Positions 26,577-61,750 of a stretch of 64,000 nucleotides of DNA are shown piece after piece. The notes under the pieces are model-generated. The model did no database searches. It worked only from the letters and a program-made list of their open reading frames with translations, and had not been told where the DNA came from. The stretch is taken from positions 22,818,001 through 22,882,000 of the forward strand of contig NC_087245.1 in NCBI RefSeq assembly GCF_037042905.1, in the 5' to 3' direction. The stretch comes from Lytechinus pictus (taxonomy: Eukaryota). The position numbers and the translations under genes are program-made. How positions within the stretch are numbered: position 1 is the first letter of the stretch; each line of letters starts with the position of its first letter.

Positions 26577-28627
26577 GGCTCGGTGTAAAAATGGCAGAGG
26601 CAATAATGGCAGAGGTAAAAATGGCAGAGGTAAAAATGGCAGAGGTAAAAATGGCAGATGTAAAAATAGCAGAGGTAAAAATGGCAGAGGTAATAATGGC
26701 AGAGGTAAAAATGACAGAGGTAAAAATGGCAGAGGTAAAAATGGCAGAGGTAAAAATGGCAGAGGCAAAAATGGCAGAAGTGAAAATGGCAGAGGTAATA
26801 ATGGCAGAGGTAAAAATGGCAGAGGTAAAAAAAATGGCAGAGGTAAAAATGGTAGAGGTAAAAATGGCAGATGTAAAAATGGCAGAGGTAATAATGGCAG
26901 AGGTAAAATGGCAGGGGTTATAATGGGATAGGTAAAAATGACAGCTCTAGGTAAAATATGGCCAGTCTTAAACCCCCATGCAATGAATTGTCAAAAAGCC
27001 CCCGCATGTACATACATTAAATAAGAAGTGCATGTCACGGTTAGGCATTTCATCATCATTATGTCTTCATCGGCCTAACAATGCTATTTACGAATTCGTT
27101 GGAGGTGTACCGTGAACGCTTTTTAAAAAGAAATCAAACGACAGATTTTTTTTTCATTCAATTTATCAGGAGCAAAATGAAACTGCACTATTCTCATTCA
27201 TCATTTCATAACATTCCTTTTTGTCTGGCTGGTTTCTTTATATCTATTTTTTTTTGTTACCTTGGTATTTTTTTTCTTATGCCTATTATTGCCATTGTTG
27301 TAAGTTGTTATATTTCTTCTATGCCCCCAGGAGGGGCCGTCAAAGAAATAAAATCATTGTCATTGTCATTGTCATTGTCATTGCCAGGTTTACCGATGCA
27401 AAAAGGAGGAAGAGTAGACATAAGAGAGGTGGAGAGACAGAGTGGGTTACGGGGGCGGGGAACAACATAGAGAACATAGCGGGGAAAGCTTAGACCTTAA
27501 AATTGTCACGAATGATTGTGGTTAAATATTATGTCCTTATTTGTAATGTCGTCTGTACTATTCTTTTTAAATATTTGAATGACAATAAGCATGCGTTCCC
27601 AGGCTTGGCACTGAATATGTAACTGATTATGAAAATCAAAAATAATCCTGTTTTGAATGGTAAACCAATCTGGGGTCGATCGAGGGGGACCGTCTGGTTC
27701 AGATTATTTGCATAAAAGAAGACCCTGAACCTTAACCACTGCATCCAATATGATATAAACGCCTTGATGGTCATAACCCTTGGAAGCGGAAGTACTGTTG
27801 GGTATTTTGTACACCATAAGCAGCACCCTCTTGGTAATTAGCTTGGTATGCTAAAATGTAGAGATTTGATACAAATCTGTTATTTTTCAAACATAAAAAA
27901 AAACATTGTTTATTATCTAATTGTTATTATTTTTGTTGTAATTCGTTTTCTGACCTAAAAGAACTTCATTTAGTTGAAATAATTTTTGTGTAATTTTCCC
28001 CCTTAACCAAATCCCCTTTCATTTTGGATTGAAAACTTTTTTTTCTCGGCTTTTTAACAAACCGGTACCCCATTTTCAATAACTTTTCAAAAGTAAGTGG
28101 TGCTCACTCAAGCGGAAATATTTTTCGACAGTTATATCGTCATTTGTTTAAATGGATCTGTACCAATATTAAAATGTGGAAAAATCTTCAGGATTTTACA
28201 TGCGGGGGCATTTTGACAATTCATTGCATGGGGGTTTAAGACTGACCATATTTTACCTAGAGCTGTCATTTTTACCTCTCCCATTATAACCCCTGCCATT
28301 TTACCTCTGCCATTATTACCTCTGCCATTTTTACCTTTGCCATTTTTACCTCTGCCATTTTTGCCTCTGCCATTTTTACCTCTGCCATTTTTACCTCTGC
28401 CATTATTACCTCTGCTATTTTTACTTCTGACATTTTTACCTCTGCCATTTTCACCTCTGCCATTTTTACCTCTGCCATTTTTACCTCTGCCATTTTTACC
28501 TCTGCCATTTTTACCTCTGCCATTATTACCTCTGCCATTTTTATTTCTGCCATTTTTACCTCTGCCATTTTCACCTCTGCCATTTTTACCTCTGCCATTA
28601 TTACCTCTGCCATTTTTACCTGGCACC
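26577..28627. mobile_element. Foldback element (TU/Puppy-like architecture): TIRs built of 15-bp tandem repeats plus an inner domain
   Basis: (aaaatggcagaggta)n left arm to ~26940 and inverted right arm from ~28270; inner IR 26940-27010 / 28197-28268; 8-bp TSD caccaatc (26569-76, 28628-35). Confidence 0.85.
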
Positions 28628-30259
28628 CACCAATCAACTAATGCGAACGTAAGCATGGACAGGAAATGTTTTATATTAAGACCCTAAAATTGGGCAATCA
28701 CTTTAAGTAGTCATGAAAAAGAAGCAAATGTCACTACATAAAACAATAATAACTCGAAATGTGAGGAAATATATTTGGTGTATATTGATTTGAAAACGGG
28801 AGGTTTTAGTACAACATGATTATACATCTCGTTAAACAGTCCACGCGAGTACCAGGAACAATGAAGACATAGGCCCTGAGCAAACTGTTTCATAAAGTCA
28901 TGAAAAAAATGCTTCTTATGTAAAATAATTATGATAAAATATAACATTATAATAAACAATAATTTTTTTTTTTTGGGGGGGGGGACGTGTCCCCCATGCC
29001 CCCTGGTAGTTACGCCACTGTATAGGTATACAGAAATCACCAATCAAAATGCGAGCGCACAGCGCTAGCTCATAGGCCTTCATTTTGACAATCGAGACAC
29101 CTGAAAATGAATATTTTGAGAATCTTATAGGAAATACACAAAGATAATAGGTAGGCCAACAACATTTTAAAGTTTCGCTTAATTTCACAATTTATATTCA
29201 AATCCTTGTCGGTATGCAAATGAGGAGACTGATGACATCACTCACTCACTACTTCTTTTTGTATTTTAGTATATGAAATATGAAATATTCCATTTTTCTC
29301 TGTTGTCGTGTGAAACAACGATTAATTCCTCCCTGAACATGAGCAATTAGCATTGTTTAATACTAAATGGTTCAATCAAGTTGGTTCATATTGTAAAATC
29401 TGTAAAAAATGAAATATTGTAAAACTCTAACAATAAAAGCAAAGGAATTCGTGAGTGAGGGACATTATCGACTGTCTCATTTGCATGTCACTGAGTTGTG
29501 CATATCACTGTTTTGTGAAAAATAAGCAAAATTTTAAAATGTCATAATTTTCTTATTTTACATCCGATTTTGATGAAATTTTCAGCATAATGCTTGTTTG
29601 ATTTTTCTCTATTTATTCAAATCAACATTTTTTTTTGGGGGGGTGGACTTGTCCTTTAAGAAATGAATGTGAGTGCGAAGCTTTTTCAGTTGTCAGATTA
29701 GAATATAAAATATTTTCAGCTTGTGCTTCTCGTTCGCATAAAAAAAAACCTGTGAGGTTGAGATGCGTATATAACTAAACAGTGATGCGAGCGCGTAGCG
29801 CGAGCTCAATTTTTTATATACTGACTTAAGAAGGACTCTTTTAAGGTATAATTCCTATTCTAAAAGTTTTTCCTTTTTCTCTTCGTCTTTTTTTTTCTTT
29901 TTTTCCCTTTTTTTTGTTGCGCCACCATGGGGGGGGGGGGCAAAAACTTTTCCCCCTGGATCGGCCTATGTATATTGACTTGAAAAACACTAACATTTTA
30001 AGGACTTATGTACGTGTGATCGATGGAGAGGATACACACCTCACTAATCAAATATTGCGAGCGCGTAGCGCCAGCTGAATTTGATATTTACCCCTTTTCT
30101 GACCCTGAACAGGTTACCTATCTTGCAAAACAAACTTCAAACTCGAGCACATTGATTTTTGTCTATTATCGTAAAAACAGGATATTTTAAATCAGCCGCA
30201 TTAATTTAACCTTTTTGGGCAGGAAATAAATTTCACTATAAACAGGCAATACGAGCAAT

Positions 30260-31820
30260 GTTGCGCCCCTGGTCGAACATGAATTTGCATGGAGCCCCCT
30301 AAGTTCAAGGTCAATTTAGCGCCCTCGGTTGAACATGATTTTGGCGCCATGTGAAATATCACTTTGCCCTCCCCCTTCTGAAACATGTCGCCTTATGGTC
30401 AAACATCAAATTAGCGCTCCCCTAGTTCGAACATCAATTTGGCGCCCCGCTAGTTTGAACATCAATTCGGCGCTCCCCTAGTTCGAACATCAATTTGGCG
30501 CCCCGCCCAGTTCAAACATCAATTTGGCGCCCCCATCTAGTTCGAAAATTAGTTCGCCCCCTCCCCCTTGTTCAAACATCAATTCGGCGCCCCATAGTTC
30601 GAACGTCATTTTGGCGCCGCCTAGTTCGAACATCAATTTGGCGCCCCCCTCGTTCGAACATCAATTTGGCGCCCCAAGTTCGAATAGCAATTCGGCGCCC
30701 CCTAGTTCGAACATCAATTTGGCGACCCTAGTTCGAATATTCAATCGGCGCCCCCCTACGTCGAACATCTATTTGGCCTCCCTAGGTCGAACATCAATTT
30801 GGCGCCCCCAGTTGGAACATCAAATTGGCGCCCCTAGTTCGAATATCAATTCGGCGCCCCCTAGTTCAAACATCAATGTGGTGACCCTAGTTCGAACATC
30901 GATTCGGCGCCCCCCCCCCCTAGTTCGAGTATCAATTCGGCGCCCCTACATGTAGGTCGATCATCAATTCGCCCCCCCCCCCTTCCCGTTCGAACATCAA
31001 TTCGACCCCCAGTTCGAACATCATTTTGGCATCCCTTCGAACTGAATTTGGTTTCCCTAGTTCGAAAATCATTTCGCCCCCTAGCTCGAGTATCAATTTG
31101 GCGCCCCCCTAGTTCGAACATCAATTCGGCGCCCCCCTAGTTTGAGTATCAGTTTGGCGCCCCCCTAGCTCGAACATCGATTCGCCCCTCCCCCTAGTTC
31201 GAGTATCAATTTGGCGCCCCCAGTTCGAACATCATTTTAAAATCCCTTCGAACATCATTTTGGCGCCCTCCTAGATCGAATATCAATTCGGCGCCCCTAC
31301 ATGTAGGTCCAACATCAATTTGGCGCCCCATAGTTCGAGTATCAATTTGGCGCACCCTAGTTCCAACATCAATTCTGAGCCCCCCTAGTTCGAGTATCAA
31401 TTTGGCGTCCCCCTAGTTCGAACATCGATTCGGCCCCTCCCCCCCCCTAGTTCGAGTATCAATTTCGCGCCCCCAGTTCGAACATCATTTTAACATCCCT
31501 TCGAACATCATTTCGGCGTCCTCCTAATTCCGAATATCAATTCGGCGCCCCTACATGTAGGTCCAACATCAATTTGGCGCCTCTAGTTCGAATATAATTT
31601 CGGCCCCCCTAGCTCGAGTATCAATTTGGCGCCCCCTAGTTCCAACATCAATTCTGAGCCCCCCTAGTTCGAGTATCAATTTGGCGTCCCCCTAGTTCGA
31701 ACATCGATTCGGCCCCCTCCCCCCCCCTAGTTCGAGTATCAATCTGGCGCCCCCAGTTCGAACATCATTTTGACATTCATTCAAACATCATTTCGGCGCC
31801 CTTTTGGTTCGAACATCATT
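30260..31820 (+). repeat. ~30-bp minisatellite (ctagttcgaacatcaatttggcgccccc)n
   Basis: About 50 degenerate adjacent units with no unique spacers. Confidence 0.9.
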
Positions 31821-33410
31821 TTCTTTCCTCCTCTTCCTCTTTTTTTCTTCTCGTCCTTCCCCTCTTCCTCTCTCCTTTTCTTCTTTTCTTTCTCTCTTTT
31901 TTTTCTCTTCTTTCCACCCTCTTCCTCTCTCCTTTTTCTCCTTTTCTTTCCCCTCTTCCTCTTTTTTCTTCCCCCTCTCCCCCTCCCTTTTCTTCTCTTC
32001 CTTTCCCCTTTTCTTCCCCCTTCTCTCTCTTTTTTTCTCTTCTTTCTTCCCTTTTCCTCTCTCTCCTTTTTCGTCTTTTCCTTTCCCTTCTTCCTCTCTC
32101 TTCCCCCCTCTTCTTTCCCTGCTTCCTCTTTTTTCTTCCCCCTCCCCCTCCCTTTTTCTTCTCTTCCTTCCCCCTCTTCCTCTTTTTTCTCTTTCTTTCC
32201 CCTCTTCTTCTCCTATTTTTTCTTCTTTTCTTTCCCCTCTTCTTTTTTCTTCTTTTCTTTCCCCTCTCTTTTTTCTTCTCTTCTTTCCTCCCTCTTCCTC
32301 TCTCTCCTTTTCTTTTCCCCTCTTCCTCTTTTTTCTTCCCCCTCTCCTTCCCCCTCCCTTTTCTTCTCTTCTTCTTTTTTCTCCTTTTCTCCTCTTTTTC
32401 CTCTCTCTCTTTTTCTTCTCTTCCTTTCCCCTCTTCCCCTCTCTCTTTTTTTTTCTCCTTTTCCTTTCCCTCTCTTTTTCCTTCTCTTTCTTTCCCCTTT
32501 TCCTCTCCCTTTTCCTTCCCTTCCTTCCCCCTCTTCCCTTTTCTTCTTTTCTTTCCCCCCCTTTTCCTCTCTCTTTTTTCTTCCCTTCTTCCCCCTCTTG
32601 TTTTCTTCTTTTCTTTCCCCTCTTTTTTCTCTTTCTTTCCCTCTCTTCTTTTTTTTCTCTTCTTTCCACCCTCTTCCTCTCTCCTTTTTCTCCTTTTCTT
32701 TCCCCTCTTCCTCTTTTTTCTTCCCCCTCTCCCCCTCCCTTTTCTTCTCTTCCTTTCCCCTTTTCTTCCCCCTTCTCTCTCTTTTTTTCTCTTCTTTCTT
32801 CCCTTTTCCTCTCTCTCCTTTTTCGTCTTTTCCTTTCCCTTCTTCCTCTCTCTTCCCCCCTCTTCTTTCCCTGCTTCCTCTTTTTTCTTCCCCCTCCCCC
32901 TCCCTTTTTCTTCTCTTCCTTCCCCCTCTTCCTCTTTTTTCTCTTTCTTTCCCCTCTTCTTCTCCTATTTTTTCTTCTTTTCTTTCCCCTCTTCTTTTTT
33001 CTTCTTTTCTTTCCCCTCTCTTTTTTCTTCTCTTCTTTCCTCCCTCTTCCTCTCTCTCCTTTTCTTTTCCCCTCTTCCTCTTTTTTCTTCCCCCTCTCCT
33101 TCCCCCTCCCTTTTCTTCTCTTCTTCTTTTTTCTCCTTTTCTCCTCTTTTTCCTCTCTCTCTTTTTCTTCTCTTCCTTTCCCCTCTTCCCCTCTCTCTTT
33201 TTTTTTCTCCTTTTCCTTTCCCTCTCTTTTTCCTTCTCTTTCTTTCCCCTTTTCCTCTCCCTTTTCCTTCCCTTCCTTCCCCCTCTTCCCTTTTCTTCTT
33301 TTCTTTCCCCCCCTTTTCCTCTCTCTTTTTTCTTCCCTTCTTCCCCCTCTTGTTTTCTTCTTTTCTTTCCCCTCTTTTTTCTCTTTCTTTCCCTCTCTTC
33401 TTTTTTTTTT
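31817..33410 (+). repeat. ~1.6-kb polypyrimidine tract made of a ~752-bp tandem duplication
   Basis: Almost only C/T; rare purine landmarks (ttccaccc at ~31912 and ~32664, tcgtc, ctgct, cctatt) recur with the same ~752-bp spacing. Confidence 0.85.
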
Positions 33411-36075
33411 GCCGAAGGGGGGGGGGGGGGGGGCCAAGGCCCCCTCGGCCCCCCCCCCCCATGGATCCGCGCCTGGGAGACAGTGCTACTTTCTGCTATG
33501 GTTTGCCATCTAGAGCAGCTCCGCCTTGTTTGTATGACGTTGATCTCGCCGGCATACATGCCAATCACATTTCACATGATCGGGAATGCGAGGAGAATGA
33601 GAGTAAAATGGATGATAGTCATGAGATTGATAATCATAACACATTAGGGACCACTGTCAAACAAATAAACACTATCATACACAAAGAAGATGATGAATAT
33701 GAGACAAGTGATACTAGCGAGATGAATAAATCTAATACTAATAGTAACGATTGTAAATCTCGGAATGAAGACCGAAGAGATGAGACCAGTGATGGTGAGG
33801 TGCTTGAAACTAACAAAGGTGAAATGAAACCATGCAATGTAGATGATGGTTACGAGAGTAGTGATGGTGGAGGTAATGACTCTAACATAGTTAATGTGAA
33901 ACAATGTAATGCAGTTGATGGATACATGACTTGTGTTGGTGAGGTGAATATAACAAACAGTGCCGACATGAAAGGATGGAATGAAGAGGTTGAGTATGCA
34001 ACTAGTGATAGTCTGGTTTATGAAAGTGACTTTGCCTGACGTGATGGTATTGCCTAACCTGACTTTGCCAAACGTGTCGCCTCATATGCTACTGAATCGC
34101 TGCATTGGTAGCAACCGTGTCGTTGACCGTGGAGGTACCGTGCTGCCTCTTGATCAAAGGTTTGACACTTTCGGATGTGTTAATACCGTGTCTGTTACAC
34201 CATCGGCCGATTTGGTGTTACCCTTTGATGCGAGTAACAGCCACAGAGCAAACACCGGGGTAACCACTATGCCTCTGTGCCCGGCTAACGTCAGCAGCAG
34301 TAGCTCTACTTCGCAAGCTATCCATCTGGCACGGGTACCATGTGTCGTGGATGGGTTGATCTCGCAGAACTTTCAGTCGGTCACCCTGCAAGCACCACCT
34401 CCAACTGAATGTCCGTACTCGGCTAGCATCTCAATCGCTAATACCCATGTTCATTCCATCTGTACTGATGTCGCATGCCATACTCGCCCTCCAGATCTGC
34501 CCCATGCTATTCCAGAGCATGGTCCTGCTGGTCTGTCCACCCCTGAAGGATGTCGTCAGGCTCGTTCGCCAGGTCAGCCCCATGCTAGTCTAGGGCATGG
34601 TCCTGCTGATCTGTCTGCCCCTGAAGGATGTCATGGTCGTCCGCCTGACCGGCCCCATGCTATATCCCGGAGCATGCATGGTCCTGCTGGTCTGTCTATC
34701 CCAGTGGTAGAGCTTCACAGACCGTATGATGTTGGTCCCTACCTGGGAATATTCTTCATGGTTCTCGCTTATCAATGCTACAGAGACATTTGTTGTTTGA
34801 TACAGTGTTAGCTCGCCTTGCTTTCAAGACCTTTGATTACATAGACATACCTTCTTTTCATGGACAGTGACTCCTCTACATTTGTTCCTAGCTTGGACTA
34901 ATGGACTCCCACGCTACCATGTGATTGTGAGGAACGAACTGGTAAAAATATCTTCACTTGAATGCCTGAACCGCCTCTTTATTTTTTTTTACCATATGGA
35001 CGGTTTTTAATACTCCATTGATTCTTTATGCCATGATGTTTGTTATGTTCTTATGGTTTTTATGTCCATGCATTGCATGTGTACATGCACTTCAACTATG
35101 ATCTATGTTATATGGATTGATTGCAAAAGTTATTGTAATAAACAGTTATATGATTTTGTGTGTGATTTATGTTGCATTTTGGGCGAGTGATTTAAGGGTC
35201 ATGATAGTTGTTGGTTGTATGAATGTGGTGTGTTATGGTGGTATGTAGCTATTGATGTTTGTTTAACATTTACTAACTGTTGACTTGTTCCTAATGATCT
35301 ATGAAACAGTGATTTCTTCTGTATCTTCATAGCCCTTTTTTTAAATATTGTTTTGAATGATTATTTAAGCATTTTAGTCAGACAGTGTAGTTATATGGTC
35401 ACAAGTTGTGGATAAGTGGCTGTTTTCAGTATTTGATCCATTTTTCTATTTGCAAGTACTTTTGATCTCATTGCAAAGGTATGATAATAATTCTGTAATT
35501 TTATCTTGTTTTTGTGCCATCCTAAATTTATTTTATGATACACAGATGATTTAGCTGTTCAGGATGAGGCTGTCGAACTGTGTATTTAATCTATTTGTTA
35601 TGTGGATATGTTGCAATGAGAGATCATTGTTTTTATTTCATTATTTTGACCATTTGCCCATATGCATCTTTTCCTTTTTCATGCAGGTTTACGGTTGTTC
35701 AATTTGTGCCGAAAATTGGTATTTAGTGCACAGCATTAATTTAGCCTTGTGTTTTGGGGTAGATTGGGGTCGAGTTTTTGCTCTTGATAATTTGATGCCT
35801 AGATAGGTAGGATGATTTGTTGTTTACCCCTTTTTAAGCCCACATATGTGTTTTTCCCATTCTTGATGACGGGGAGAGATGGGAAGTAGTGATGCTCTAT
35901 GATGTTATTTGAATTGTGACCTTTGTTGTGTTCATATGTTAGTTTAATATTCAACTCATTATGATACATTGGTGTCTAGATTTTTCAGAGTCTTACACCA
36001 GCGAAGGTCTACCCTTTTTATTTAATAGTGAGCTAATTACGAATCATCATGATTTTATTATACAGATTATATTGT

Positions 36076-37135: not shown

Positions 37136-40100
37136 ACCCCCCCAAAAAATAACAACAATGAAGAAAAAAATAATACACACAAATACACACACATACCAAC
37201 ACAACACCTCTAACACAACGCACACAACCTTACCACAAACAACGACACACACCGTGACGCACATACACTACACACCAGATTGGTGGTTGAAGACAATTCG
37301 TGTAATGGGCGACAATATGTGGTTCTATGTTTCTTTTTGCCGACACAAATTGGCACAATATGCTTAAAAATTTAGACCGGCACGTGCAGCACAAATTGTC
37401 GCTAAATTGTCCAGGAGGGACAATTTGTTGTGTCAGTTTTTGCACAAATTGTCGCGGGGTGACAATTTGTGGTGCAACACACTGATACATATTTTCGGAG
37501 AGGATGGTTGCTACATACTTGGTTGAGATCGCTCAGATAATATCAGATCAAGATACTAGACATTTATCCTTATGCGATTTTGAAACAGCTCTCCCCATCC
37601 ATTATCATGGTCCTACCTCAAAATTAATACAGTTCAAAACATGACTGTAAACACGCACGATATGACATGTGATTGATTTGAGAATTTATTCGCAATAATA
37701 ATTAAGATTAACAAGTGAAAGACAGTTTCACAGAGTACTGCAAGTTTAAAATGAAGGATATAGCCTAGGCTGAGGAAACGCCCAAACAATGCTGATATAC
37801 TTAGGTTAGATTTACCAGACAACGTTATAGTTGTGAAGACATATAAAAAAGCTGTCATATGATTAATCAAGCTTTTAGTATTGGAACAGTCTTTACATGT
37901 TTGTTTAAGTGACACATAGCAGCAGCGACTATAACATTTCAGAATAAAACAATTACGATATATATATATATATATATATATAAAAGTAATTTGTAGGCCT
38001 ATTTCAATTGCACATTTAAAGTAAAATGACAATGATTTATGCAAATGGTATTGAAAATTATGAAAGCTGCACACTAAAATTGACCAAACAAATATATATT
38101 ATTAAAACACACCAAGTAAAATACAAAAATATCGTATATCCAACCAATACAAAACCATTTACCGTCAATATTTACATCTCATAATGGTACAATGGTAAAA
38201 TAGTTGACAAGCCGTTTTGTTTGGCACATAGTGCATTTTTAATTAAAACATAAATTGTTTTGTTAGTTTAGATGAATATTGCTTTGAGAAATTTCATTTT
38301 CAGATAGAATGGAAGAGTATATATACATATATATATATATATTTATATATAATACACAATATGTGATACAAGCAATACAAACCTATCGTTCATTGGTAAA
38401 ATTTACAATGAAAATATCAATTCCCCACAGAGCTCACGTTTCTTCTGTGTATATCATCATCTTGTATTAAATGGAACGAGACAGATATTTTAGTCAATAA
38501 CCTTTCTACATATTTTTAGAAATTCGTTAGTAAATACATAGGTATTTTGCTATTATGAAATAAAATTTCTCAGCTAGGGCACAATATCTCTCACAACGGC
38601 AGATTTTATATTCCATAAAGAATCACATAAATTACATAACAGTTACTCTCAACCTTTGTAAGATTGGAAAGTTAGAATATATTTCGAATTATCCGACATC
38701 TAAAAGCTTATGATAGGCTTTAGATATTTCACCACGGAACCCATAAAGCCTAACTAATACTAGAATATTTACGCACAAGTAACTTGAGTGCACCTGACTA
38801 TCGACCGAGTTAAATTGACAGAAAGCTACACATATTATAACAAAATATTATAAATAATACAACCCTTCCAAATATGACAAAATCTTCAAATAATTTCTAG
38901 TCGCTATCTATACTTTACATATTTGCTCTGATGAATGATGATGTTCAAAATGGTGTTAACTAAATTCTTTGAATTAATTACTCGTATGATATTGACAGTA
39001 AAGCTGTATTTGACGGTAAAGAGTGTAATGATATCATGCAGCATTCAAATTTCAATACATTAAAAATAGTAAGTTTTTATAGTACTCTCAAGTATACTCG
39101 TTTAAGTGTAGGCAAATATGGATTAAAGGAAATTTTGATGGCAGTGATGATATTCCACCATTCAATAATGTGTCTGTGTAGCAACAACAAAATTTATCTT
39201 TTATAAGCTACCGAAATACTATGAATATATACACGATTTGATTAGCTGATAATGAATTCGTTATAAAAGTAATACGTTTTCCATTAAGTTTTTACTTACA
39301 TATTGCTTTCAATCATGTACTGTATATCATATATTTTTCAAATAAAATGCAATAATTTTTTTTTGTCATACAAACGTCTACATTGAATGAGCACAAAAAT
39401 GATGTTTAAAACAATTTACAGCACTATATCAGGTGTCCATTGCAAGTTTATCATCAAATGTACCATAGTGAAATAGAATATACATTTCCAAAAGTATTAA
39501 AATATCATAAGATCGCCATCTCATTTCATATTCAACAAAACTTTCAACTTTCCCTTTTTCTTTTCATAGACAGATACTTCCGAGTTAACTTTTGAAATAT
39601 TGCCCTCAGTATCTGGACACAACATTGGGAAATAAGATGGGTCAAATGCCTTTCTACATATATACAATCAATAGAATTATTTGGACAGTCTTGGGAGCAG
39701 ATTTAAAAAAATGCATTTTATCACTCATATTTCTCCCCAATTAAGAGATTCCAGGGCTTAAATCTATCCACGGCCATCGAAGAACATGGCCATGGAATGC
39801 TCACGTGATATGCCTTATTGCCCCACACATTGGCCTTGAATGTGTCTGGTGCATTCTTATTTGTCATTTTTCCCCTTCGTGCTGCTAAAGAAAAATGGCC
39901 TTACCCTATCAAAATTAAAGGTATGATATTTCAAAGACAAACTCTAAAATAGTATATGAGAACAAAAGACGAAATTATTTCTACTTTCTATCATATTTAT
40001 CATTCGAATTCACATCATTCGATTCCCATTCAAAATATCAATTTCTTAAAGTGAATAAGGTATTGACGTCAAAACCCTTATAATGTGGGCCCTTCTATTT

Positions 40101-40341
40101 GATGGTTTTCAAGTTCATGGCTTGAAATTTGATACGCTTATAATGACAAGAGCAGTAAATGAATTAAAAGTGGAATAAAATGGGAGTGGGATGTATTGAA
40201 AGGTTACTACACAGGATTGTTTAAAGTCTGAATTATCTTTCTTCCCAAAATATCTAACGTCTCGCTTTCTTTTTCTGCGAAAATTCCAACCCCGTTTGAT
40301 TAAAAAAGGGGAAAGAAGTACAATAAATCAACATTTTTAAC

Positions 40342-42633
40342 CTAACGGGTATGACGTCCAGTGGAAGACTTATTGAATGCACCTGTAACGTTAGTGTTTT
40401 GAGGAAAGATTTTAGTATGATTGTTGTTATTTATTGTTCTATCACCCACATGCACATCACTGACATGATTGTTGAAATCAACCTTAACATTTCCTTGAAC
40501 AGTCAAATGAACATGATTAGCGTGAATACTTCCAGTAGTATCTGGAGAAGAGGCGCTGTCCGGAGGGGCGGTTCTAGGTGCCCTTCTCTTCCCTTCTTGA
40601 ATTTCCTGGTATTCGCCAGACGCTTGCAATCTTGAACGACCAAGTAATCCACTGGGTTGATTCGAGTTCATTGAAATGAGACGTTCCCCTTCACTTCCCA
40701 CTCCATTATCAGGATGCTTCTTGCCTTCGACCTGAGGTTGCTTGTTCCGGTTGACTAGAGCCTCAACCATATGCGAATCTGAAGTAAATTGATCGGCACC
40801 GCCATATGATACCTGTCTTCCATTTCCAGAGCTTTCGCCAAACGGGCTCTTTGTAGAAAAATGTGCTCCTTTCGTAAACTTGTCGCGAAATTGTGAGTTG
40901 TTGTTAGAACCTACTTTTGCAGAACATGTAGACCTACAACTCCCACCCATTCCCGATTCAAACACTTCGTCGTCTGAGTTACTACTCCCACTACTGTGCT
41001 TATCTTTGTCCAAACCGCCGCCAGTTTTGTCATGGTCTTCCAAATCTTTTCCGTTCTCAACGCTTCCATTCTCTGGAATATTGTTTAGGGTACGACCCAT
41101 GTTTATCTGGATCGACCTGGCTTGTTCAGTCTCATTGTTTCCATGCTGTCCTTCTCCATGAAGACTGTGATGATGAAACTTGAAGATTTTGGCATGGGTT
41201 CCACTTTGGTGTACCACAGCAGTGGTTTTTGGCGATATATCCTCTTCATCAGTTAGTAGAGAGGTGACACCGGTATCAGGGGTGCCCGGTCGATTCGGAG
41301 ATCTTTCCGATGGGATTGCTCCTGTTTGTTCTACGAATTCCCTCTGAACCCACTCTGTAGTTTGGAGATGCTGGTTACCTGGTAACAATTTGATGGCTGA
41401 TTCATTATTACCACCCTCATCAACACCATGTGGGAAGAGCTTCACATTGGTACCACCATGTCCATTTCTCTGTTCCTCTTCTCTGTTTGTATAATAAACA
41501 CGAGATCCATTGGCTGATCTGCAAATCAAAAGTACGCAAAGAAATCCTTTCGTAAAAGTTTCATAAACTTAACTTCATGATATCGTGTAAGTGTTAAACC
41601 GTTACATTCACATGTATGTCTGACGATAATGCATAAATGGCCTTTTTTAAATGTGCAGAGACAACGATTGGTTTCATTTAATTCATAAAATTTTGGGGAA
41701 CCAAATAAAATATTATTACTTGCTTAAGTTTAACATTAAAATGTTCCACCATTTATTATATTCAGGATAAAACTAACGAGATCGTACTAAATATAATAGT
41801 GATATATAACAACAAATCTCAATTTACATACCTGAGATTTTTTGCAAGCTCTGATGAAGTGTCACCTTTATAGAAATGAAGGGGGAAAATCGAGTTATAT
41901 AATGCATCTACTTGGATATACATTTGAAAGAAAACCATAATAATAATCATGATAATAATCAATTTTAGTACACTCTTCTTTGTCTTCGTCCCCTTGTCTC
42001 TGTTCTCATTTTGCCTTCCATTTTCCTTTTCGTATTTTCTGCTCCTTTTGCTTACCCTTTTTCTCTACTGTTGCTCTGTATCCACATGCACTGAGGATAA
42101 GATTTATCTCATGATATTATACTGCAAATAATATTGATAACTTTATTTTACCAACACATTAAATATATACCTATAAATAAGTGTTAGTTAAACAATAGGG
42201 GAAATGCAGACCGATTTTCCGTGACCTAATCATGAATTCGGATTGTACATGTATCCCTGAACACCGAATCCATTGCAGTGTACGCTTTGAAGAAAAAAGG
42301 GAATAAACATGTCCCTTAATTTATGTCAAATAAATCATACATAAATATATACTCCCTTCAATTTTGATAAAAAAAAAATTGTATATATTTTGTTCATTAA
42401 ATTCATTGACAGTAAAGCTAATTCGTATTTATGAAAGAATATTTCGATATACTTACTTCGTTTCGTAAGACCACACCAAATCAACCATTCATCCGAGATG
42501 CAACTTGTTATTCCAGATTTCCTGCGCATGTAGCAAACCACCAACACGATTATGGTAATAACAACAACCCCCAAAACACAAGGGATGATCAGGATGAGGT
42601 GATTGAATTTGGGGCTTTGGGTTGGTTCTTCAC
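40342..42633 (-). CDS. 3' exons of a single-pass membrane receptor with a long disordered cytoplasmic tail and C-terminal RHIM-like motif
   Basis: Exons 42633-42457 (TM LILIIPCVLGVVVITIIVLVVCY then MRRK; phase 1/1), 41865-41832 (phase 1/2) and 41518-40342 (stop). All have canonical AG/GT sites with matching phases. Ectodomain exons unresolved. Confidence 0.75.
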
Positions 42634-43602
42634 CTGAAAAGAAGTTAAAAAAAAAATCAATTAAGGGCCGCAAACGTAAAGTATTTCCCACTTAATCACG
42701 TTTTTCTTTATACTCGCCGTATAACACACACACACCACACACACAGACTACAGACGTGAAGACCTGGGAAGCGTTTCATCAACATTTTCGTCCAATTGTT
42801 CAGATCTGACAACTTTCTTTGATTTTGTTTGGCTGAGAAGCAACGTTTCTATGGTAACTGTCGGATAAAACGTCCAACAAGTCCTTTCTATTGATGAAAC
42901 ACCCCCCATGACCAAGAGTCTAAAGCCATGAAAGCTAAGAGTGCGGTGCAATACTGACATGCCAAATTGGAAAACTTACCCAGAGTCTATTCTTCAAAAT
43001 ATATTTAAGGCCTCACAATCTAAAGCTAAGACATCAATAGTACAGAAATGTCAATGTACACCCTCATCCAGATTTCAAAAGGAAAATGTAATGGATAATT
43101 CCTGGTTCGGTCTTGACCTTTTGGTGTGAGTGTTTGGCTGATTGCTACATGAGCACAGCATCAAAGCTAACATGAACTGACAAGACAAGACTTGTTTTAT
43201 CCGACAGTTACCATATAGGAACTGTGTTCCTCAGCCAATCACATTCTAGGAACGTTGCTGTCGGACAAAAATGTTGAGGAAATGCCCCCAGGTCCTTTGA
43301 CGGATCTCACTAGGTGATGAACTAGATAATCCCGACCTTTCGTTGGAGAACGCGAACGCTTATTTGCGACGGTAGTTGATTTTGGAAGAGACTTTTGGGC
43401 CTGTCGTCATGGTCGTAAAACTCTGTCCTGCAATGCAAATTGTGTGACATGAGATTTTTTTTTCGTATCGCATCTGGAATGGAAACATTCAATCTGCGTT
43501 TCGTGTGCAAACTTCTGGTAGCTACTATGGTAACAGCGATATATCCGATTTAGGACGACTTTCCAAAGCCACATTTGGTTCCTCCCAGAGCTCGAGAGGC
43601 CG

Positions 43603-43902
43603 CCCGGGGGCCCACTTCCATTGAAGAGTGGATACCAGGCGCGACCACGCGTAAAAAGGGAAAGAGTGGGCAAGTACGTTACGTATAGGCCTATGTAACG
43701 TTATAAGGGTGTCAAAAACGATGTTTAAAATACTGAAAAAGGAGGATATGTTTTCAATACTTGTAGGGTTTCACAAGCTTAATACTTGTTAAGAGATGCA
43801 TTTTCATAATCTGGAAAAGCCTTGCTTCCCTTGTTCAGGGTGCTTTTCGAAACCACATGTCGTGCCTGGTAACCACTCATCAATGGAAGTGGTCCTCCCG
43901 GG
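43603..43902. mobile_element. MITE with CCCGGG termini
   Basis: cccgggggcccacttccattgaagagtggataccaggcgcgac / gtcgtgcctggtaaccactcatcaatggaagtggtcctcccggg. Confidence 0.75.
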
Positions 43903-44549
43903 AATTCGAATCTAATCCCCCATTTCTGGGGAAAGTAAAGCATAATGCCCATTACATTGTGTGCTAGAGGCATATCGTTTGAGTAGGAGTAAACAAAAGA
44001 AAAAAAACCCCGCACGTATACATGCTGTGTACATATTCAACGCATGCGAAATGGTTTCGGCTGGAGAGGTGATTTGACCCATGGAATCAATTGCCGGAGA
44101 TCCACCAATAATCCACATTAAATGCAATATCGATTCGATGGACTGTAATGATCTATATCTAAGCCTTAATTCAGTAACTTTTTCCTCACTCAATATGTAC
44201 TCGATTTGTTTGAAAAACCACTTTCTTATCCATGTCATAATCTATTTTAGGTCCTGCATTTCGAATATCTCCAGCCATCAGTCGTAATATACATGCATGT
44301 ATGGTGCGGGTGTCGCGGGAAAGAATTTTGCACACGAAAAGCAGATTTGTAGGGCCTGAAACCCCCCTGTAACACAAAGCTTAGCATTGATTGTATAGCA
44401 GTTCTCTACGTTTGACTCTATTGACTATAATGTACAATCAATCTTAAAAATCAAGTGTATGATTAAGCGTTAACTTTTGTGTTAGGGGACCCTAATATTA
44501 GCGTCCGTGAGGATTGCGAAAGGTGGCAATTGTGATCTTTAAACGCAAA

Positions 44550-46504
44550 TTAGACATGGGTTATGGAAGGCATTATGAATAGTGCTAGCAATACCGACAC
44601 TGACCATGCTGACACCGACCCCGAACCCACTCTGCCAGATTGAAGAAACCAACGTACTTGCTCCGGCGCATGCAAGCCTTGAAATACAAACACCCACCAC
44701 CCACACACAAATGTAAACGGGATAAGAATAAAAACAAAAAGGATGAACTGGGGGAGGGAAACTAGAGGAATGGGTGTCGATTGATGACCATGGTCGTAAG
44801 CAGAATTTTTTTCCAGGGGGAGGGGGACGCGTAAACGTTTTCGATGAAACCCAAACGCGAGGGAGCGAAGCGACCGAGCTTGCCATTGGCTCTTTTGTAT
44901 TTTCAAAAGTGAAATTGAAGGATTTCGTGCACACTTATCATAAATTTTGTGAATATTTTCAGTTAAAAATGTTATTCAATTTTTTTGAGGGGGGGGGGGG
45001 GGAGGAGGTGGTTAACTGCCCCTCAACCACTGCGTACGGCCATGGGATGACTGACCCAATTTTTGTTCTCTGTGAGGGATTTGTTTTGTTAGTTTGAGGG
45101 GGGCAATTGCGTAATGAGTCTAAAAATTTTCGACGGCCAGACGTGACTTAATAGGCCAACTTTATTAAAACAAAATGCGAGAGACCTCTTAATGCAAAAA
45201 TCAAATTTTGTAACAGATTTTGAAAAGATATCTAAAAAATACACATGTACATGTATATATCAAAGTCACCCTTTTTCTTCCATGGTCCCTATGCCCCACA
45301 TCTGCACGCCAGCGTGGGTAGTCCTTAATACTACAGTTTTATGTACGAGTTAGCTTTATTTCTACAACGAGACTACTAAAAGTACTATAGATCAATGCGT
45401 GCGCGAAGCGCGAGCTGTTTTTTTTTTTCAATTTACCTGAAAAGTAGTAATGTTGAGAATTTTTTGTCGGTTTTGGGGGTTATTACTCATTTTATTTGAA
45501 TTCTAATTTCTTTACATGTTCTCCATTTACGTTACATCATAAATCGGGATAAAGAATACTGACAAAAAATGAAGTGACATTCAAAAGGGTAGTAAAATAA
45601 ACGGAGCACCCAGGCGCTTGGTTGTGGGGAGGGGTGAATTTTCAAAAAGATATAATGTAATCCTGGATTTTAAAGAAATACTCTACCTATCTGCTTCTAA
45701 TGATATCTGAAAGGAATGGTTTCATTTAATAACAATTTACATAAGAAATTCAGAGAGAAAAGAATTGGTCATCATGCATACATACGACAGTCAATGTTTC
45801 CATTGATAACACACGCCATTCTATATATCTCCCACCCTCACCATGTGATCGATACCCATGAATGGGAATCGCTACCACCCACGATGATAATCATTTTTAT
45901 TATCATTACTATCATTATGATAATGATGATACTACTACTACTACTACGACTACTTCTAGTAGTAGAAGTATTAATATCAGTATTTTGATACTTGTCATAT
46001 GATTAATTGTATTGAAATATGATGTTCGACCTTAATTCATTGGGGTGATGGTAACACTGGCTATACCCCACCTAAAATACTGGGGGATATATACCTCCAT
46101 CCCCCGGGATCGACATCCATGCTGATCTTCCCCCTCCCATTAACGCTCGCTCCTTCTGTCATTATTATGTGTGTTTAAGCGACCGAGCAAATATTGACAT
46201 TTCTATTATTCTATCATAATACACGAATGAGGCTTTTTGAGGCATATTCTCACATCCATCAAAACAATACAGAGTTGTCCATTCCTTTATTCAAGATCTT
46301 TTTCAGACAAAGGATTTTCCCTCCCTTTATTCCAACTCTAGGAGTGATGCAATGTGGAAACTTAAATGAATAGTTACCATCATCTGCATCCCTGACCAAA
46401 CGGGCAATGATTGGCTGGGGCATGTCATGTGATATCCCAAATCTGTTGTTCATCTTTTTCAAAATGTCGTCACCATTCGAATCATCAGCAAGGAAGGGGC
46501 TTAC
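44550..46504 (-). CDS. Putative two-exon segment ending in a GPI-signal-like hydrophobic C-terminus
   Basis: Exon 46504-46378 (VSPFLADD...RLVRDADD, ends phase 1) joins exon 44677-44550 (GLHAPEQVRWFLQSGRVGSGSVSAWSVSVLLALFIMPSITHV*). Phases match; no start codon identified. Confidence 0.35.
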
Positions 46505-48633
46505 CTGGAAAAGAAAACCGAAAATCGAGGTCGTAAAAGTAATTAGAAGAAAAAGAGTTGTGGAATATCTCAAGGAATATGAATTAGATTGACGGGATTT
46601 CTTTCATTTTTACTATTGATAGGAACAGTTTTGTCCTAATGAAAGGTAATAGGGTTTTTTTTGTTCCAAAAATAAAGTTCACATATTACCAAACGTATCA
46701 AGTAAATGGCATACTTTTAGTCAAAGTTCCAAACTCGATTCTTTTAGATATGAGCAATGGCCCTGTAAATGTAATGGTGAATAAAAACATTCTTGACAAA
46801 ACTTTGGTATATTATGAAGTTCACTTTGATATTGCTGGTTCCTACATGACACTGAGACACTCCATAAGCATCTACAGATGAGGAAATGAGATACATTTCT
46901 TCCACAATTCGTGCTTTCGTTGATTACAAACTTTCTTTGACAAGTTGGATGTTAACTTAAAGAATACAAGTTTAAAGACATACCACAAAGGAACATGACT
47001 TTCCCACGAGGACAAAGATGACCCAAAGAGTTCTGGGCACGATTAGAATAGGATTCTTCATGCTTCAAACGATCTCACGGTAAGTTTACAGGAGAAGATA
47101 CTCGAGGAATAGCCACTGAAAGTGCGGTGCTTTGGTCAGGTGTCCTCGAGTGCAATGTGTAAGTGTGCCAGACTCAACACGTGCTTCGTAGGTGGTGTTG
47201 TGACGTGGATGTGAAGGTGTACTGGAGATTGGAGGGTGCTAGTGTTCGGTGTAGGCTCAACGCGATGAGGTTATAATGAGTGCGGTGTTTTGTGGCTGGT
47301 GTTTAGGTTTCATCATTTCGATATCCACTGAGGGGAGCACTTTAAACAGTACGTTGTTCCAATATAGACTTGTATATTCTCACTTTGTAGTTTTGACAAA
47401 AGAACCAAGATCAATTACCCGAATACCTGGAACATCCAACTTGAATGATGTATGTGAAGCGAGTGAATAATCATTGACAAATCAAATCCCAAATTAAAAT
47501 TAGAGTTACGTATCTACAAATAGAATATCTATACTGCTATCATATATCAAAGGGGGCATGGTAGAATAAGTTTCAAGTAAGTAGGCTCAGAACGAGTGGG
47601 CTTCACATGTATTTGGATGTTGTCACTCATACCGGATTCTGATGACATTGTTTCAACGAAACCCACTTGTAAAACTCCCTCAGCCATTACATTCAATAAT
47701 CACCTGCAAATAGAAGAGGAGAGATCAAGTTCAGGATGTGAATTGAATAATACATACATGTAATTAACTAAAGACATTCCAAAAATGAATGTCTACAAAT
47801 GGAATATCTATACTGCTATCATATATCAAAGGGGGCATGGTAGAATAGGTTTCAAGTAAGTAGGCTCAGAACGAGTTCCAAAAATGAATACGATACACTA
47901 TTCGTCTCCGTTCGGGTCTTTACATAAAATGCAAGTTATTTTTTGTAAAAGAAGTGTCATGGCGGCCGGGCTAAGCAAGCACGATTATTGGCACCTATGT
48001 GTAAAACCTAAGAGATGCCAGTCAATTTCTTAACATTCAAATTATGATAAATTACTTCCTATTTGTTCATTTATACTTTCGGGAAAAAATCAAATTATCA
48101 CTCTAAGAAAAAAAAAAAACAACAACAAAACAGTGACATAACGCGCTTTCCGCTTCTTCTCACGTTCAGATAGCTGTTATAGTTGTTTACATCGTCTTGT
48201 TCAGTTCTAGTATTCCCTGCAAACCTGCAACGGTGCGGTAGTACCGTCTATGAAGATATAAAATATAGTTTCGTTTTGGACAATCAGTATTTCCAGGTGG
48301 TTTTTCTTCAATGTTTTTCACGTCAACGATTCATGCGAGACACCGTTTTTGCAAAAGTTTCCATACATCTTCATGCTTGGCTTCTTATAATTCAGAAGTT
48401 ACGACAACGAATGATTTGTATCTGTAACAATACCAGCGTACCTCATGAATCTCAGTGCATTCAAGGAGAATATCTAGAATAAGTGCTTTGTGTAGTCCCC
48501 ACATTTAAGGTTAGGAGCCTAAATACAATTGTATGTCAGTCTGAATGAGAAAACCATTTCCTGTCAAATTTCTGGGCGTTCTTGATATGATCATTAATCT
48601 TCCGGGACAATGGTGAAACTGTGGGGTATACAT

Positions 48634-50852: not shown

Positions 50853-52539
50853 CAGTCTAATCTTTACTACAAAATGTTTTGGAATAACCCGACCATCTGC
50901 CTTAAACACCCAAAGACATCGTGTTTCAAAGTCCAAACACCCACTAAATCGGATGCATTGTTATTCATTTCACGCACGGGTATTTCTCTTGTGATAATTA
51001 TTTAAACATAAAGGTCATTTTAAAACAGTCGTTATTGTACAGCAATATTTCTCGAGTGATAATAAAGGGGGAAAACGAAGACGACCATGCACTTCCAGTG
51101 ACAATCAATATCATGTATTTTGCAAATGAATTTGTAAAAATTACAGAATATTAAATGAGTCTATTCATATGACCTCAATATGGGAATACCTTGAAATTAA
51201 ATATTTCGCTATTTCAAAGACATTCTTTTTTGGTAAATCTAAAGATGTTAACCAAAAAAATAAAATGCGGTAGAAGTGGTGGGATGCTGCCCGTGAACAA
51301 TATGCTTAACATAAATCACCAGACCGACGCAATTATGATTTTAGCAAACATGGTTGGCTATTGAAGTTTCAGTATGTTTAGATATTTCGTACTTTGATTA
51401 CAATGGCGTTTCCATAGTTTCCAGCTTCTTAAAACACAAAGTCCACGTGAATTACATGTTTATTGTGAAGCTGAATCAATAGAATAACACTGACAAGCAA
51501 AGCAGTAACATGATACAAAATCCGGGGAACACGATAAAAACTCGGGTAAAAACTACGTCATCATTAATTGGGTCTGATCGATCAGTTAAGAAAATTGTGT
51601 CCGTCGTGGACTTGTGGTGTCCTATGATGAGAATGTAACTAACAGTTCAACACGATCCAACTTTATTTGTACTTTCTCAAATATTATTACATGTAGTACA
51701 TGGTTTCCTCAATCAATCTGAGATGAAGACTAATTTGGACCATATGATTTTTAGTAACACTATAGTGTCGTTAAAATAGCACTTTTAAGCAAAACATATC
51801 GGTCCGTTACCATCTCGTTATTCCCGAAGGATTCAAGGAGATAATTAAAAATATTCGACAATGTTGCCAACCGATTTGGATCGTACTTGGGAAAAAGAAT
51901 TGAAAAGTCCTGCACCTAATATACGTCGGTCGTCCGCACATAGATATTTTTATTGATTTTCCCATGAATAGGAAACCATGACAACAAAACTAATCATTTA
52001 AGGGAACACTTGTTGATATCTTTCAAGATAAACCCTAAATTTTTCAATTCTGCTTACTAGGAGTTCATTAAAAAAAGTCTTCTGCATTATACAAAATAGG
52101 GTGTACATTCAGAGGGGGGAGGGGGGGGGGGGGCCAAACATAAATTTTCCCAAAATAATGTTGCAACTTGAAAAAAATGATATGCAATACAAAAATAATT
52201 TTGTTTAAAGGCATTGGAAAGCCCCATAAAACCATTAAACTTGGCCAAAAAAATAAATTTGAACATACAAAATTGTCAACGCATAATCCTTGATGACTAT
52301 TTCGACAAATCCTCAATGCATGGTTAACAGTTTTTGCCAATGAGCATTTTTTGTTCGATAAGGTGAACCCCTCCAAAACTCTTGAACAGCTTTACAATTT
52401 GTAATACGGAGTATTGTAAACCTGAAACATAATAACGTCATATCGTGGCACTCTGCATTTGATTGGATCTCATCCCCCGAATTGCCCATTCTGATTGCGT
52501 ACGCCTGATATTATGCATGGCTGGAGAACATAGAATATT

Positions 52540-53060
52540 ATATCCTACATAGAGTAAATCCTGTATAGTGATTGGTTCAAGTAGCATCATGTGACCGAAT
52601 ATATTTCAACTATGATGTTGCGTGACGTCAGACCTCGATATATTTTTGGATATACCAATATTCTGACGTCATTATTTCACAAAACTGGATATCTCGGCGC
52701 ACCGGCTTGCGCGCTCTCTCTCTCCCGGGCGCGCAAGTCCAGCGCGATGCGTCAGCGCAGACACTAATCTGCGTTCCGCTGGACGCGGTGGCTCGGAGAA
52801 AAGTAGGTAATTCAACAGGACTTTGCATACTCAGCGCATAGATTTTGATTTTGGTTATAAATTATTAAAAGTAGGATATAAAGCAAATATATCAGGCGTT
52901 TCATTCGAAAGCATAGTGGGAATTATTAATCCTCGGTTGGACTGGCAAAACTACTATATTTCCCTCGGGGCTTCGCCCCTCGGGAAAAAATAGTAATTGC
53001 CAGACCAACCTCGGATAAATAATTCCACTATACTTTCTCAAAGCCCGATATATTTGTTTA
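52540..53060 (+). mobile_element. Hairpin-ended non-autonomous element (Crypton-like architecture)
   Basis: tatcctac...gtaggata subterminal inverted pair, then an ~170-bp imperfect palindrome centred on ccctcggggcttcgcccctcggg. Confidence 0.45.
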
Positions 53061-53095
53061 CTGTAGCACCCATGCAACAAAACAGCTGATCTTAA

Positions 53096-54031
53096 GGACG
53101 TTCCACAGTTATGTTTGCGCGCATTATGATCTGCGCATAGTTTTCACTCTGCACGCTGACGTCACAATGGATGAACAGGTGATTAATTAGCTGCGGGTAT
53201 GAGCTGATTTTTCTCATCTTCTGCACTTTAACTGCAGATCCGATGCGTTATTTCATGAAGATAAAAAATTGAATTATTCCATGGACCATTCAAAAAAATA
53301 TTCTCTACAATTTCAAAATACTTTACTCTGCAGTGCTGCCAAGAATCACGAATATTACCCCGAGTTTGAATAAATGGTAGAGTGGTTTTGATTTTTTATT
53401 CACATAGATACTTAGCATTCGGCGCATTTTTGGTGTTTTAAAAAGCACATTTGCTCTAATAAAAATGCTGATAGTTTAAAAACAAGCACATGAACCCCTA
53501 TTTTTAAATGTTTGTACCTCTTAGGTATACCTTCCTCTACAACTCTGCAAATTTTTGTGAAAATGACATGGATTTTTAATAAAGTGCAGCATTTATTGTA
53601 CGTTTGTAGTTTGTTACTGATATTTTACATTTTTTAGATTGGGATTTTGTTATCTTTTACGCCATTTTTAAGAACTGACAGTGCTGTTAAACTTAAAATT
53701 GCAAACAAATAGCACTATAAATAGATTCTCCATTCTAACGATACAATTATTAACTCTCTTGCGAAATTTGATGACTTTTTCATGTATTTTGACTGAGTAA
53801 TAGAGGTTTAAACTCATTGTAGTAATCTTGGGCGGTCTAAAAATGCCAAATTCTTTTGAATGCGCAATTCTTAAAAACATCAATTTGGGTGAACTTCGAA
53901 GCTCTATAGCAAAAAATCAAGCACATGGACCTATGTTAATTTTTGCATATTTCGAATATTAAGGTTCTAAAGTATCTATGTGCACAGTTTGGTGAAAATG
54001 ACATGGATTTCACTTTAACTGTGGAACGTCC
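53096..54031. mobile_element. Kolobok-type non-autonomous element
   Basis: 16-bp perfect TIR ggacgttccacagtta / taactgtggaacgtcc; TTAA TSD; RR...YY termini. Confidence 0.8.
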
Positions 54032-54370
54032 TTAAAAGAAAAAAAAACACCAGGAAAATTTGAACGTATTCAAACGTTCGGACAGAGCGGAATTTAGGTC
54101 ACATGATATCCCTATAGTTGACCACAACAATGCAAATCATTAAATTTGAAATACAAATATCATCGATGACTCACCTATTCTGGAATCCTATGCGCCATGA
54201 TGTATCCACAACAGACATTTCCAACAAGCAAAAGGTGTTTCGATATCAAGCGGCACAGAACACGAGGCGAATATGCGACTCGATACGAATGGCGCTCCCG
54301 GGCAACTCCCCAGCTGTGTGTGCATGACCATGGGGGACAATTGGCGCTTTGTGCTTGTGCGTTGGAAAAA

Positions 54371-54382
54371 GGGGAATTTCCC
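54371..54382. promoter_or_regulatory. Consensus NF-kB-type site
   Basis: ggggaatttccc matches GGGRNWYYCC; a weaker gggcaactcccc lies at ~54300. Function unproven. Confidence 0.35.
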
Positions 54383-54503
54383 GAATTGAAAAAGATGACA
54401 TAATGTTTCAGAAAATTCTCTGAAATTCGTGTTGCACGATAAAACAAATACCATTTCAAATAGCCCCGGGAAGCGAGGGTGCTGCATATGTTGTTCTCCA
54501 TAG

Positions 54504-54703
54504 GGGCAATTCCATAAAATAATCAACCTTTTTGTACGTCCGACCACCATTTTTCTCAAGTTTTACTTCACTTCATAAAGTGACCAAGTCATGGTCATTA
54601 GAGAGCATTACAGACTGTCAAAAGAACAAGAAATCAGAGACAGAAAATTTCATGAAGGTCCCACATAAAGGGGGTCGGACGTACATATTTTATGGAATTG
54701 CCC
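54504..54703. mobile_element. Harbinger-like MITE
   Basis: gggcaattccataaaata / tattttatggaattgccc TIRs plus an inner tgtacgtccgacc / ggtcggacgtaca pair. Confidence 0.65.
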
Positions 54704-61491: not shown

Positions 61492-61750
61492 GGCCCGTAT
61501 TCACAAAAGAAGTTTAAACCCCCCCTGGGTTTAAACCCCCTCCTGGTTTTTTGAAACCATGGTTTAAACCCAGGGGGGGTTTAAACCCCCTCTCTGATTC
61601 ACAAACGATGGTTTTTTTAAACCATGGTTTAAACCACAGTCTAAATTTAAACTGTGGTCTAAATTTAGACTGTGGTTTAAACCATGGTTTAAATTTAGAC
61701 CATGGTTTAAACCATGGGTTTTTTCCTACTGAGCATGCTCAGTAGGTCAG

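Follow-up and report, generated by a model that had tools for sequence, protein, structure and literature searches.

The window, that is, the whole 64,000-nucleotide stretch of the Lytechinus pictus genome that was analysed, carries on its minus strand a gene of five coding exons (47061-40342), which have GT-AG ends and join in phase to encode a protein of 530 amino acids. The translation is identical to XP_054753763.2, the uncharacterized LOC129259504 of Lytechinus pictus (stored protein P0006), and the features of the gene and protein are collected in Table 1. The transmembrane exon, the 34-nt exon and the last exon, which span the interval marked in the first-pass annotation of this DNA, are in phase with GT-AG ends.

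Table 1. Features of the LOC129259504 gene and protein, in the order of the minus strand.
Feature	Position	Strand	Basis or remark
Coding exon 1, Met1-Val26, probable signal peptide	46984..47061	-	hydropathy; 14/26 identical to S. purpuratus
Exon 2, bulk of the 53-aa extracellular part, domain-less	46378..46504	-	spliced contig gap
RxxR site of minimal furin type at residues 61-64, RLVR (S. purpuratus: RFAR)	46391..46402	-	hand-computed coordinates
Exon 3, encoding the stalk, the TM helix and a conserved juxtamembrane segment with Cys and Trp	42457..42633	-	S. purpuratus identity
TM helix, residues 80-103	about 42601-42530	-	18/24 identical to S. purpuratus
Exon 4, 34 nt	41832..41865	-	spliced contig gap
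Exon 5, disordered cytoplasmic tail and stop	40342..41518	-	GT-AG chain, contig, AlphaFold
ESxxxLL, acidic dileucine-like	41383..41403	-	E, S, L, L invariant in alignment A1
PSExSP, TP, SL-x-TD-x-E block, residues 203-231	41242..41328	-	Ser/Thr-Pro rich, contains PxExS
DDEVF acidic motif, S-x-D-D/E-V-F	40960..40974	-	conserved
EGERLI, [DE]xxxL[LI] sorting-type	40675..40692	-	pattern in 3/4 sequences scanned
Beta-prone RHIM-like region, residues 469-506 (38 residues)	40417..40530	-
VKVD, site of the second upstream tetrad	40477..40488	-	hand-computed coordinates
Core tetrad VHVG, residues 494-497	40444..40455	-
GAFNKSS, C-terminal	40363..40383	-	F, N, S invariant; terminal AFN-x-S conserved
3' UTR, lower bound on length	38500..40341	-	contig X15 record 7

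Transcription and gene models

It was found that these exons are transcribed and spliced, as had been proposed, from a spliced contig and from raw RNA runs, the latter supplying the strand evidence. A spliced contig (X1 record 3) covers 47347-46981, 42631-42455 and 41518-40692 and supports the exon chain. Two stretches of the contig, 126 and 32 letters long, have no listed position; allowing for letters shared at the junctions, they match exons 2 and 4, which leaves no space for an extra ectodomain exon. A further contig (X15 record 7) is continuous between 41518 and the limit of the examined stretch, and the 3' UTR extends beyond 38500. Raw first mates over 39164-41819 lay on the plus strand only in two RNA runs, at a depth of about 0.3-3 with 6% of each run read; assuming the usual stranded library, this indicates low-level minus-strand RNA. 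Very deep coverage on both strands was noted over repeats at 42484-45100 (intron 2) and 52444-55099 (upstream), probably derived from other copies of these repeats.

The 812-Mb assembly contains one copy of the gene, and searches of it returned no paralogs. One candidate paralog (P0015) was rejected, as it maps back to this gene's own locus and resembles a duplicate model with a frameshift. RefSeq predicts further isoforms as well, one with a different first exon and others with later starts, including forms of 427 aa without the TM helix. The alternative first coding exon of isoform X1 (P0004) lies at 47607-47687 on the minus strand; its start is not signal-peptide-like, and the contig over it is unspliced down to 47393.

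Elsewhere in the window, by eye, the plus strand contains a 1151-aa open frame resembling a non-LTR retrotransposon endonuclease and reverse transcriptase (3095-6550) and broken LTR-retrotransposon pol-like fragments (19200-21100). Two related arrays of 15-base units (26500-26990 and 28130-28690) have several frames open on both strands, and a polypyrimidine repeat of about 2 kb (31650-33650) shows an internal duplication and a GC skew of -0.6. A Myb/SANT-like frame lies at 61733-62248 on the minus strand, with Harbinger-like transposase fragments just outside the window (L081, L083) and a piggyBac-like fragment beyond its other side (L080, 738-1616), again judged by eye. Only transposon-like frames were seen by eye in the 20 kb on either side of the window.

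Protein layout

Residues 1-26 are probably a signal peptide by hydropathy (peak 1.97). The extracellular part comprises residues 27-79 and contains no cysteine and no domain; 22 of its 53 residues are identical to Strongylocentrotus purpuratus, with the best block around PIIARxxRD. The S. purpuratus ectodomain is about equally short, and its overall layout is the same. The first-pass annotation had called for a full-length transcript to obtain the ectodomain; the five-exon chain encodes no ligand-binding ectodomain, only these 53 residues. Because the extracellular part is this short and domain-less, the term receptor is unsupported in its ligand-binding sense. We infer that the protein is cleaved at RLVR.

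On the cytoplasmic side, the juxtamembrane segment (residues 104-128) is identical to S. purpuratus at 18 of 25 positions and holds three conserved cysteines and a conserved WLIWCGL. The cytoplasmic tail that begins here (residues 104-530) consists of 11% S, 11% G, 9% N, 7.5% T and 7% E. AlphaFold gave a mean pLDDT of 32 from a shallow six-row alignment, with residues above 50 only in the TM region. The tail had been described as about 410 residues of S/G/N/E-rich sequence; its disorder and lack of a folded domain stand, and its length is corrected to 427 aa. There was no Pfam domain in the 530-aa protein, scans of seven sequences giving only sub-threshold matches in the TM region, and PDB sequence searches returned 0 matches at E<=10. 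The ESM Atlas held nothing for the motif and, for the S. purpuratus protein (P0010), only matches below 0.9 to unrelated single-pass proteins. We agree with the earlier view that a TIR or death domain is absent (Pfam, AlphaFold).

A short ectodomain, juxtamembrane cysteines and a disordered tail of short motifs are shared with LAT/PAG-type transmembrane adaptors, whose ectodomains are tiny, and with TNFR relatives without a CRD (RELL1/2, NRADD). No sequence link to these types was found with Pfam, phmmer or the ESM Atlas. The tail holds only 4 tyrosines, so that a phosphotyrosine adaptor reading fails. A TNFR cysteine-rich domain is absent from both protein and locus, no death domain is present, and the protein cannot be filed as a member of the TNF receptor superfamily. 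An origin from that family by linkage was also rejected: all 23 matches to TNFR cysteine-rich exons in the genome lie away from the locus, the nearest on the contig about 10 Mb off. Four such exons are clustered at G000:C14:16.07-16.33 Mb (L015, L019, L020, L026).

Several other short motifs of the tail are conserved (Table 1). Summed over three distant relatives, the most conserved 20-residue window of the tail is residues 203-222, containing PSExSP, and the PSExSP/TP/SLxTDxE block looks like a chained phosphorylation site. P-x-E-x-S is retained in all four sequences scanned and is only TRAF-like with respect to the consensus. The dileucine, sorting and TRAF-like labels follow consensus patterns and mark putative functions, and ESxxxLL may serve in sorting. 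A TRAF2-type TDEE had also been pointed out; that reading fails, because the site becomes TDDE in 3/3 distant relatives.

Relatives and conservation of the RHIM-like region

Relatives were sought with phmmer among 1.84 billion representatives (E<=0.001), which returned 4 proteins, with identities to the L. pictus protein of 83% for L. variegatus, 45% for P0010 (S. purpuratus LOC100891954) and 36% and 42% for the assembly proteins P0011 and P0012. A profile search added just one duplicate model of the L. pictus locus. Family members were found only in Lytechinus, S. purpuratus and the two assembly proteins, with no named match outside these two sea-urchin genera; fast divergence could hide other relatives.

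The core tetrad was confirmed at the position first given for it. The motif had been described as ending the tail; its C-terminal position holds, though 24 more residues follow the segment originally quoted. The best beta-propensity window of the tail falls within residues 469-506 in 5/5 sequences. In the distant relatives the core reads VQVG (P0010), FQVG (P0011) and VQVG (P0012), and F487, V491, V496, G497 and R499 are invariant. The change between H and Q requires one base. It was probably a single event, as the three distant relatives share 64-78% identity among themselves and hence are not independent.

Chance was assessed with shuffled tails. Of these, 4.5% contain the pattern [VI][QH][VIL]G and 99% a bare VxxG, which makes the tetrad alone weak evidence; a longer hydrophobic pattern occurs in 0.9%, the extra loop residue having been permitted only after inspection of the sequences. 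It is conservation in relatives that raises the motif above chance. Identity over residues 469-506 exceeds that of the tail elsewhere in P0010 (19/38 versus 95/331; p = 0.004) and P0011 (17/38 versus 86/331; p = 0.009), so that the expected conservation was recovered for these two and not for P0012 (12/38 versus 111/331; p = 0.66), in which 8 residues of the region are lost. The motif is free of gaps in the P0010 and P0011 comparisons, versus about 34% gaps in the remaining tail. When the three relatives are summed, it ranks second in conservation among 20-residue windows, the PSExSP block being first; in the S. purpuratus pairwise alignment, 43/350 windows match or exceed its conservation.

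A second tetrad lies 11 residues upstream of the core, as AQVG in P0010 and AQFG in P0011. As RIPK1 does, P0010 has G-x-x-N-x-hydrophobic behind its AQVG. In Lytechinus the position reads VKVD or FKFD-like, and the upstream tetrad has apparently decayed in L. pictus.

Comparison with RHIM and cRHIM motifs

We assessed whether the region belongs with the established RHIMs. The core (V/I)-Q-(V/I/L/C)-G is matched by P0010 and P0012, while Lytechinus (VHVG) and P0011 (FQVG) do not match it. The RHIM model PF12721, a scan of the kind that the first-pass annotation had suggested, detected 0/7 sequences at E<=10; a genome search with the same model gave no match anywhere, controls included, and its sensitivity is therefore low. 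Hydrophobic residues at -8, -6, +1 and +3, the strict RIPK spacing, were found in 0/5 sequences. With one extra loop residue, which places the upstream pair at -9 and -7, the pattern fits 5/5, this being a relaxation made after the data were seen, with shuffle rates below 1%. Such a loop insertion may explain the lack of a PF12721 match. Asn-x-apolar following the core Gly is absent at the main tetrad in 5/5 sequences, and only P0010 shows it, behind its upstream AQVG; the Asn residues four positions ahead of the core and three past the Gly are both missing. The cRHIM-type VxxG, in itself unspecific, is present with an invariant Gly (G497) in a beta-prone hydrophobic stretch, and the flanks are unstructured by Pfam, composition and AlphaFold. 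Three tested RHIM features failed, and canonical RHIM membership is therefore not assignable. The RHIM-like core first proposed survives in part, with a canonical VQVG in two of three relatives and FQVG in the third, set against the missing model match and strict spacing. On sequence grounds, the protein may nevertheless work like a RHIM or cRHIM protein.

Published motifs were compared by eye (PMC9387487 supplement 1). In that material VHVG is the cRHIM core of Nilaparvata lugens PGRP-LC and VQVG is the human RIPK3 tetrad; by a count made by eye, 13/15 insect cRHIMs have D or N directly before the core and 9/15 have His at its second position. The L. pictus motif likewise has D directly before the core. 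The listed PGRP-LC motifs continue G-[DN]-K-x-hydrophobic, the urchin family G-[DN]-R-x-hydrophobic, and the urchin upstream strand lies one residue further away than in the insect cRHIMs. As described in PMC9387487 and PMC13506858, insect PGRP-LC/LE/LA and Imd similarly have a cytoplasmic His-type core on a membrane protein, whereas the urchin motif lies near the C terminus of a type I protein that has no PGRP or other sensor domain.

The mammalian RHIMs of RIPK1, RIPK3, TRIF and ZBP1, as presented in PMC9444067 and PMC12119088, share with the family the VQVG of S. purpuratus and P0012, disordered flanks, a hydrophobic first interface and the tandem tetrads of two relatives. These mammalian proteins are cytosolic, with kinase, death, TIR or Z-alpha domains, while the urchin protein is membrane-bound without these domains, lacks the downstream Asn and has no PF12721 match. 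The text of PMC4262963 stresses the Asn after the core as a RHIM feature, and the disordered flanks of the urchin motif fit the RHIM setting given there. In the reported mutational scan of RIPK RHIMs, the four hydrophobic positions examined above were essential for nucleation, and insertions before the second strand raised it (bioRxiv 10.64898/2026.02.19.706818).

Among invertebrates, shrimp SRB2 is reported as a membrane protein that signals by way of amyloid formed by a cytoplasmic cRHIM at its C terminus; it differs in its LPS-binding scavenger-receptor ectodomain and its core, ARNG, the core of shrimp IMD being VHIG (PMC10268257). The Branchiostoma proteins of PMC4262963 belong to invertebrate deuterostomes and have RHIMs where death-fold domains usually sit; neither 'urchin' nor 'purpuratus' occurs in the searched text of that paper, its architecture figure lying outside the search.

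Search for partners

A search of the genome with the motif returned its own gene only. Three exact pattern scans for a RHIM partner gave 43 matches versus 36 in the control, 32 versus 32 and 43 versus 37; split or divergent motifs escape such patterns. Of these, 30/43, 12/32 and 0/43 were inspected, with no credible coding RHIM among the 42. Three matches were examined as possible partners and set aside. One looked RHIM-like and adjoins what is presumably an alpha/beta-hydrolase-like exon (L056), another lies within a Cys-rich frame that we take to be folate-receptor-like (L089), and the third is an intron read-through past the donor site of a presumably TMEM131-like gene (L093). Complex prediction with four motif copies without an alignment scored 0.02, which is evidence neither way.

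Discussion

Tentatively, and at slightly under an even chance, we favour a type I, membrane-tethered RHIM-type scaffold, adaptor or co-receptor whose C-terminal motif is RHIM-like in action. A furin-type cut at RxxR would leave a stub of about 15 residues, so that the protein itself would bind no ligand. A partner receptor, or lipids attached to the juxtamembrane cysteines, would bring about clustering, upon which the clustered motif would stack into a cross-beta seed at the membrane and recruit further copies or a cytosolic RHIM-type partner. The PSExSP/TP block may recruit kinases or TRAFs, and the dileucine motifs would route the complex to endosomes, ending the signal. An immune, NF-kB-type output is assumed only by analogy with known RHIM proteins. 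In favour of this reading are the VQVG and FQVG cores of relatives at 36-45% identity, the hydrophobic spacing with one extra loop residue, the raised conservation in P0010 and P0011, the second tetrads and the disordered flanks. Against it weigh the lack of a PF12721 match, the failed strict spacing, the missing Asn residues, the unraised conservation in P0012, the higher rank of the PSExSP block, the lack of a partner in the genome scans and the reported absence of RHIM-bearing RIPK1 from echinoderms.

A more specific and distinctly less probable form of this proposal is a sensor-less, protease-trimmed 'seed adaptor', which would nucleate RHIM-type amyloid at the membrane and so couple RHIM-less receptors to amyloid signalling. 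The family would then switch its core between the mammalian (Q) and insect (H) types and between one and two tetrads.

It is also conceivable, though rather unlikely, that the region is a beta-strand outside the RHIM class, serving self-association or strand addition to a folded partner, with the likeness of its tetrad convergent. RANK provides the precedent, in that its cytoplasmic IIVVYV is reported to drive ligand-independent oligomerisation (PMC4076115), and an IVVY-like role would fit the missing HMM match, the Asn positions out of register, the lack of a partner and the equal conservation of other short tail motifs. Against it stand features specific to RHIMs, namely the invariant Gly after V-x-V, the interchange of Q and H, the D before the core and the second Q-V/F-G tetrad of two relatives.

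Less probable again is a membrane-tethered decoy or inhibitor that would capture RHIM proteins and direct them to lysosomes, in the manner of viral M45 or of Pirk, described as a RHIM-like negative regulator (PMC13506858). The protein has neither a ligand-binding nor an enzymatic domain, two dileucine-like motifs are present and the TM-less 427-aa models would suit such a role, but conservation of the Ser/Thr-Pro block with its PxExS points to effectors being recruited, and no target RHIM protein appeared in the genome scans.

We see little prospect for a genuine receptor whose ectodomain is miniature or that is activated by RxxR cleavage, which comes near the original proposal: the conservation around PIIARxxRD would favour it, while residues 27-79 lack cysteines and domains, the spliced contig leaves no extra exon, and the nearest TNFR cysteine-rich exon is distant. 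Least probable of all is a lineage-specific, non-immune membrane protein with a chance or neutral match, since gap-free, above-background conservation in 2/3 relatives with five invariant residues opposes it, even with the tetrad arising in 2-5% of shuffled tails and so few relatives known.

A literature search on the gene and protein identifiers, covering few subscription papers, found no paper, and topic searches of titles and the starts of abstracts, figures not covered, returned no description of a sea-urchin RHIM membrane protein. Echinoderms are reported to possess MLKL (PMC11932488, PMC11507063, PMC12119088), and sea cucumber AjMLKL is reported to be activated by cleavage. For a phylum in which RIPK1 with a RHIM is reported absent (PMC12119088, PMC11507063), this gene provides a single-copy, expressed candidate for amyloid signalling in a sea urchin that is kept in laboratories. 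The RHIM-like membrane proteins described in the sources above (PGRP-LC/LA, SRB2) act as sensors and carry a ligand-binding domain, and an architecture lacking one would be new. With VHVG and VQVG both occurring in one family, the question whether RHIM and cRHIM cores can stand in for each other could be put to a natural test.
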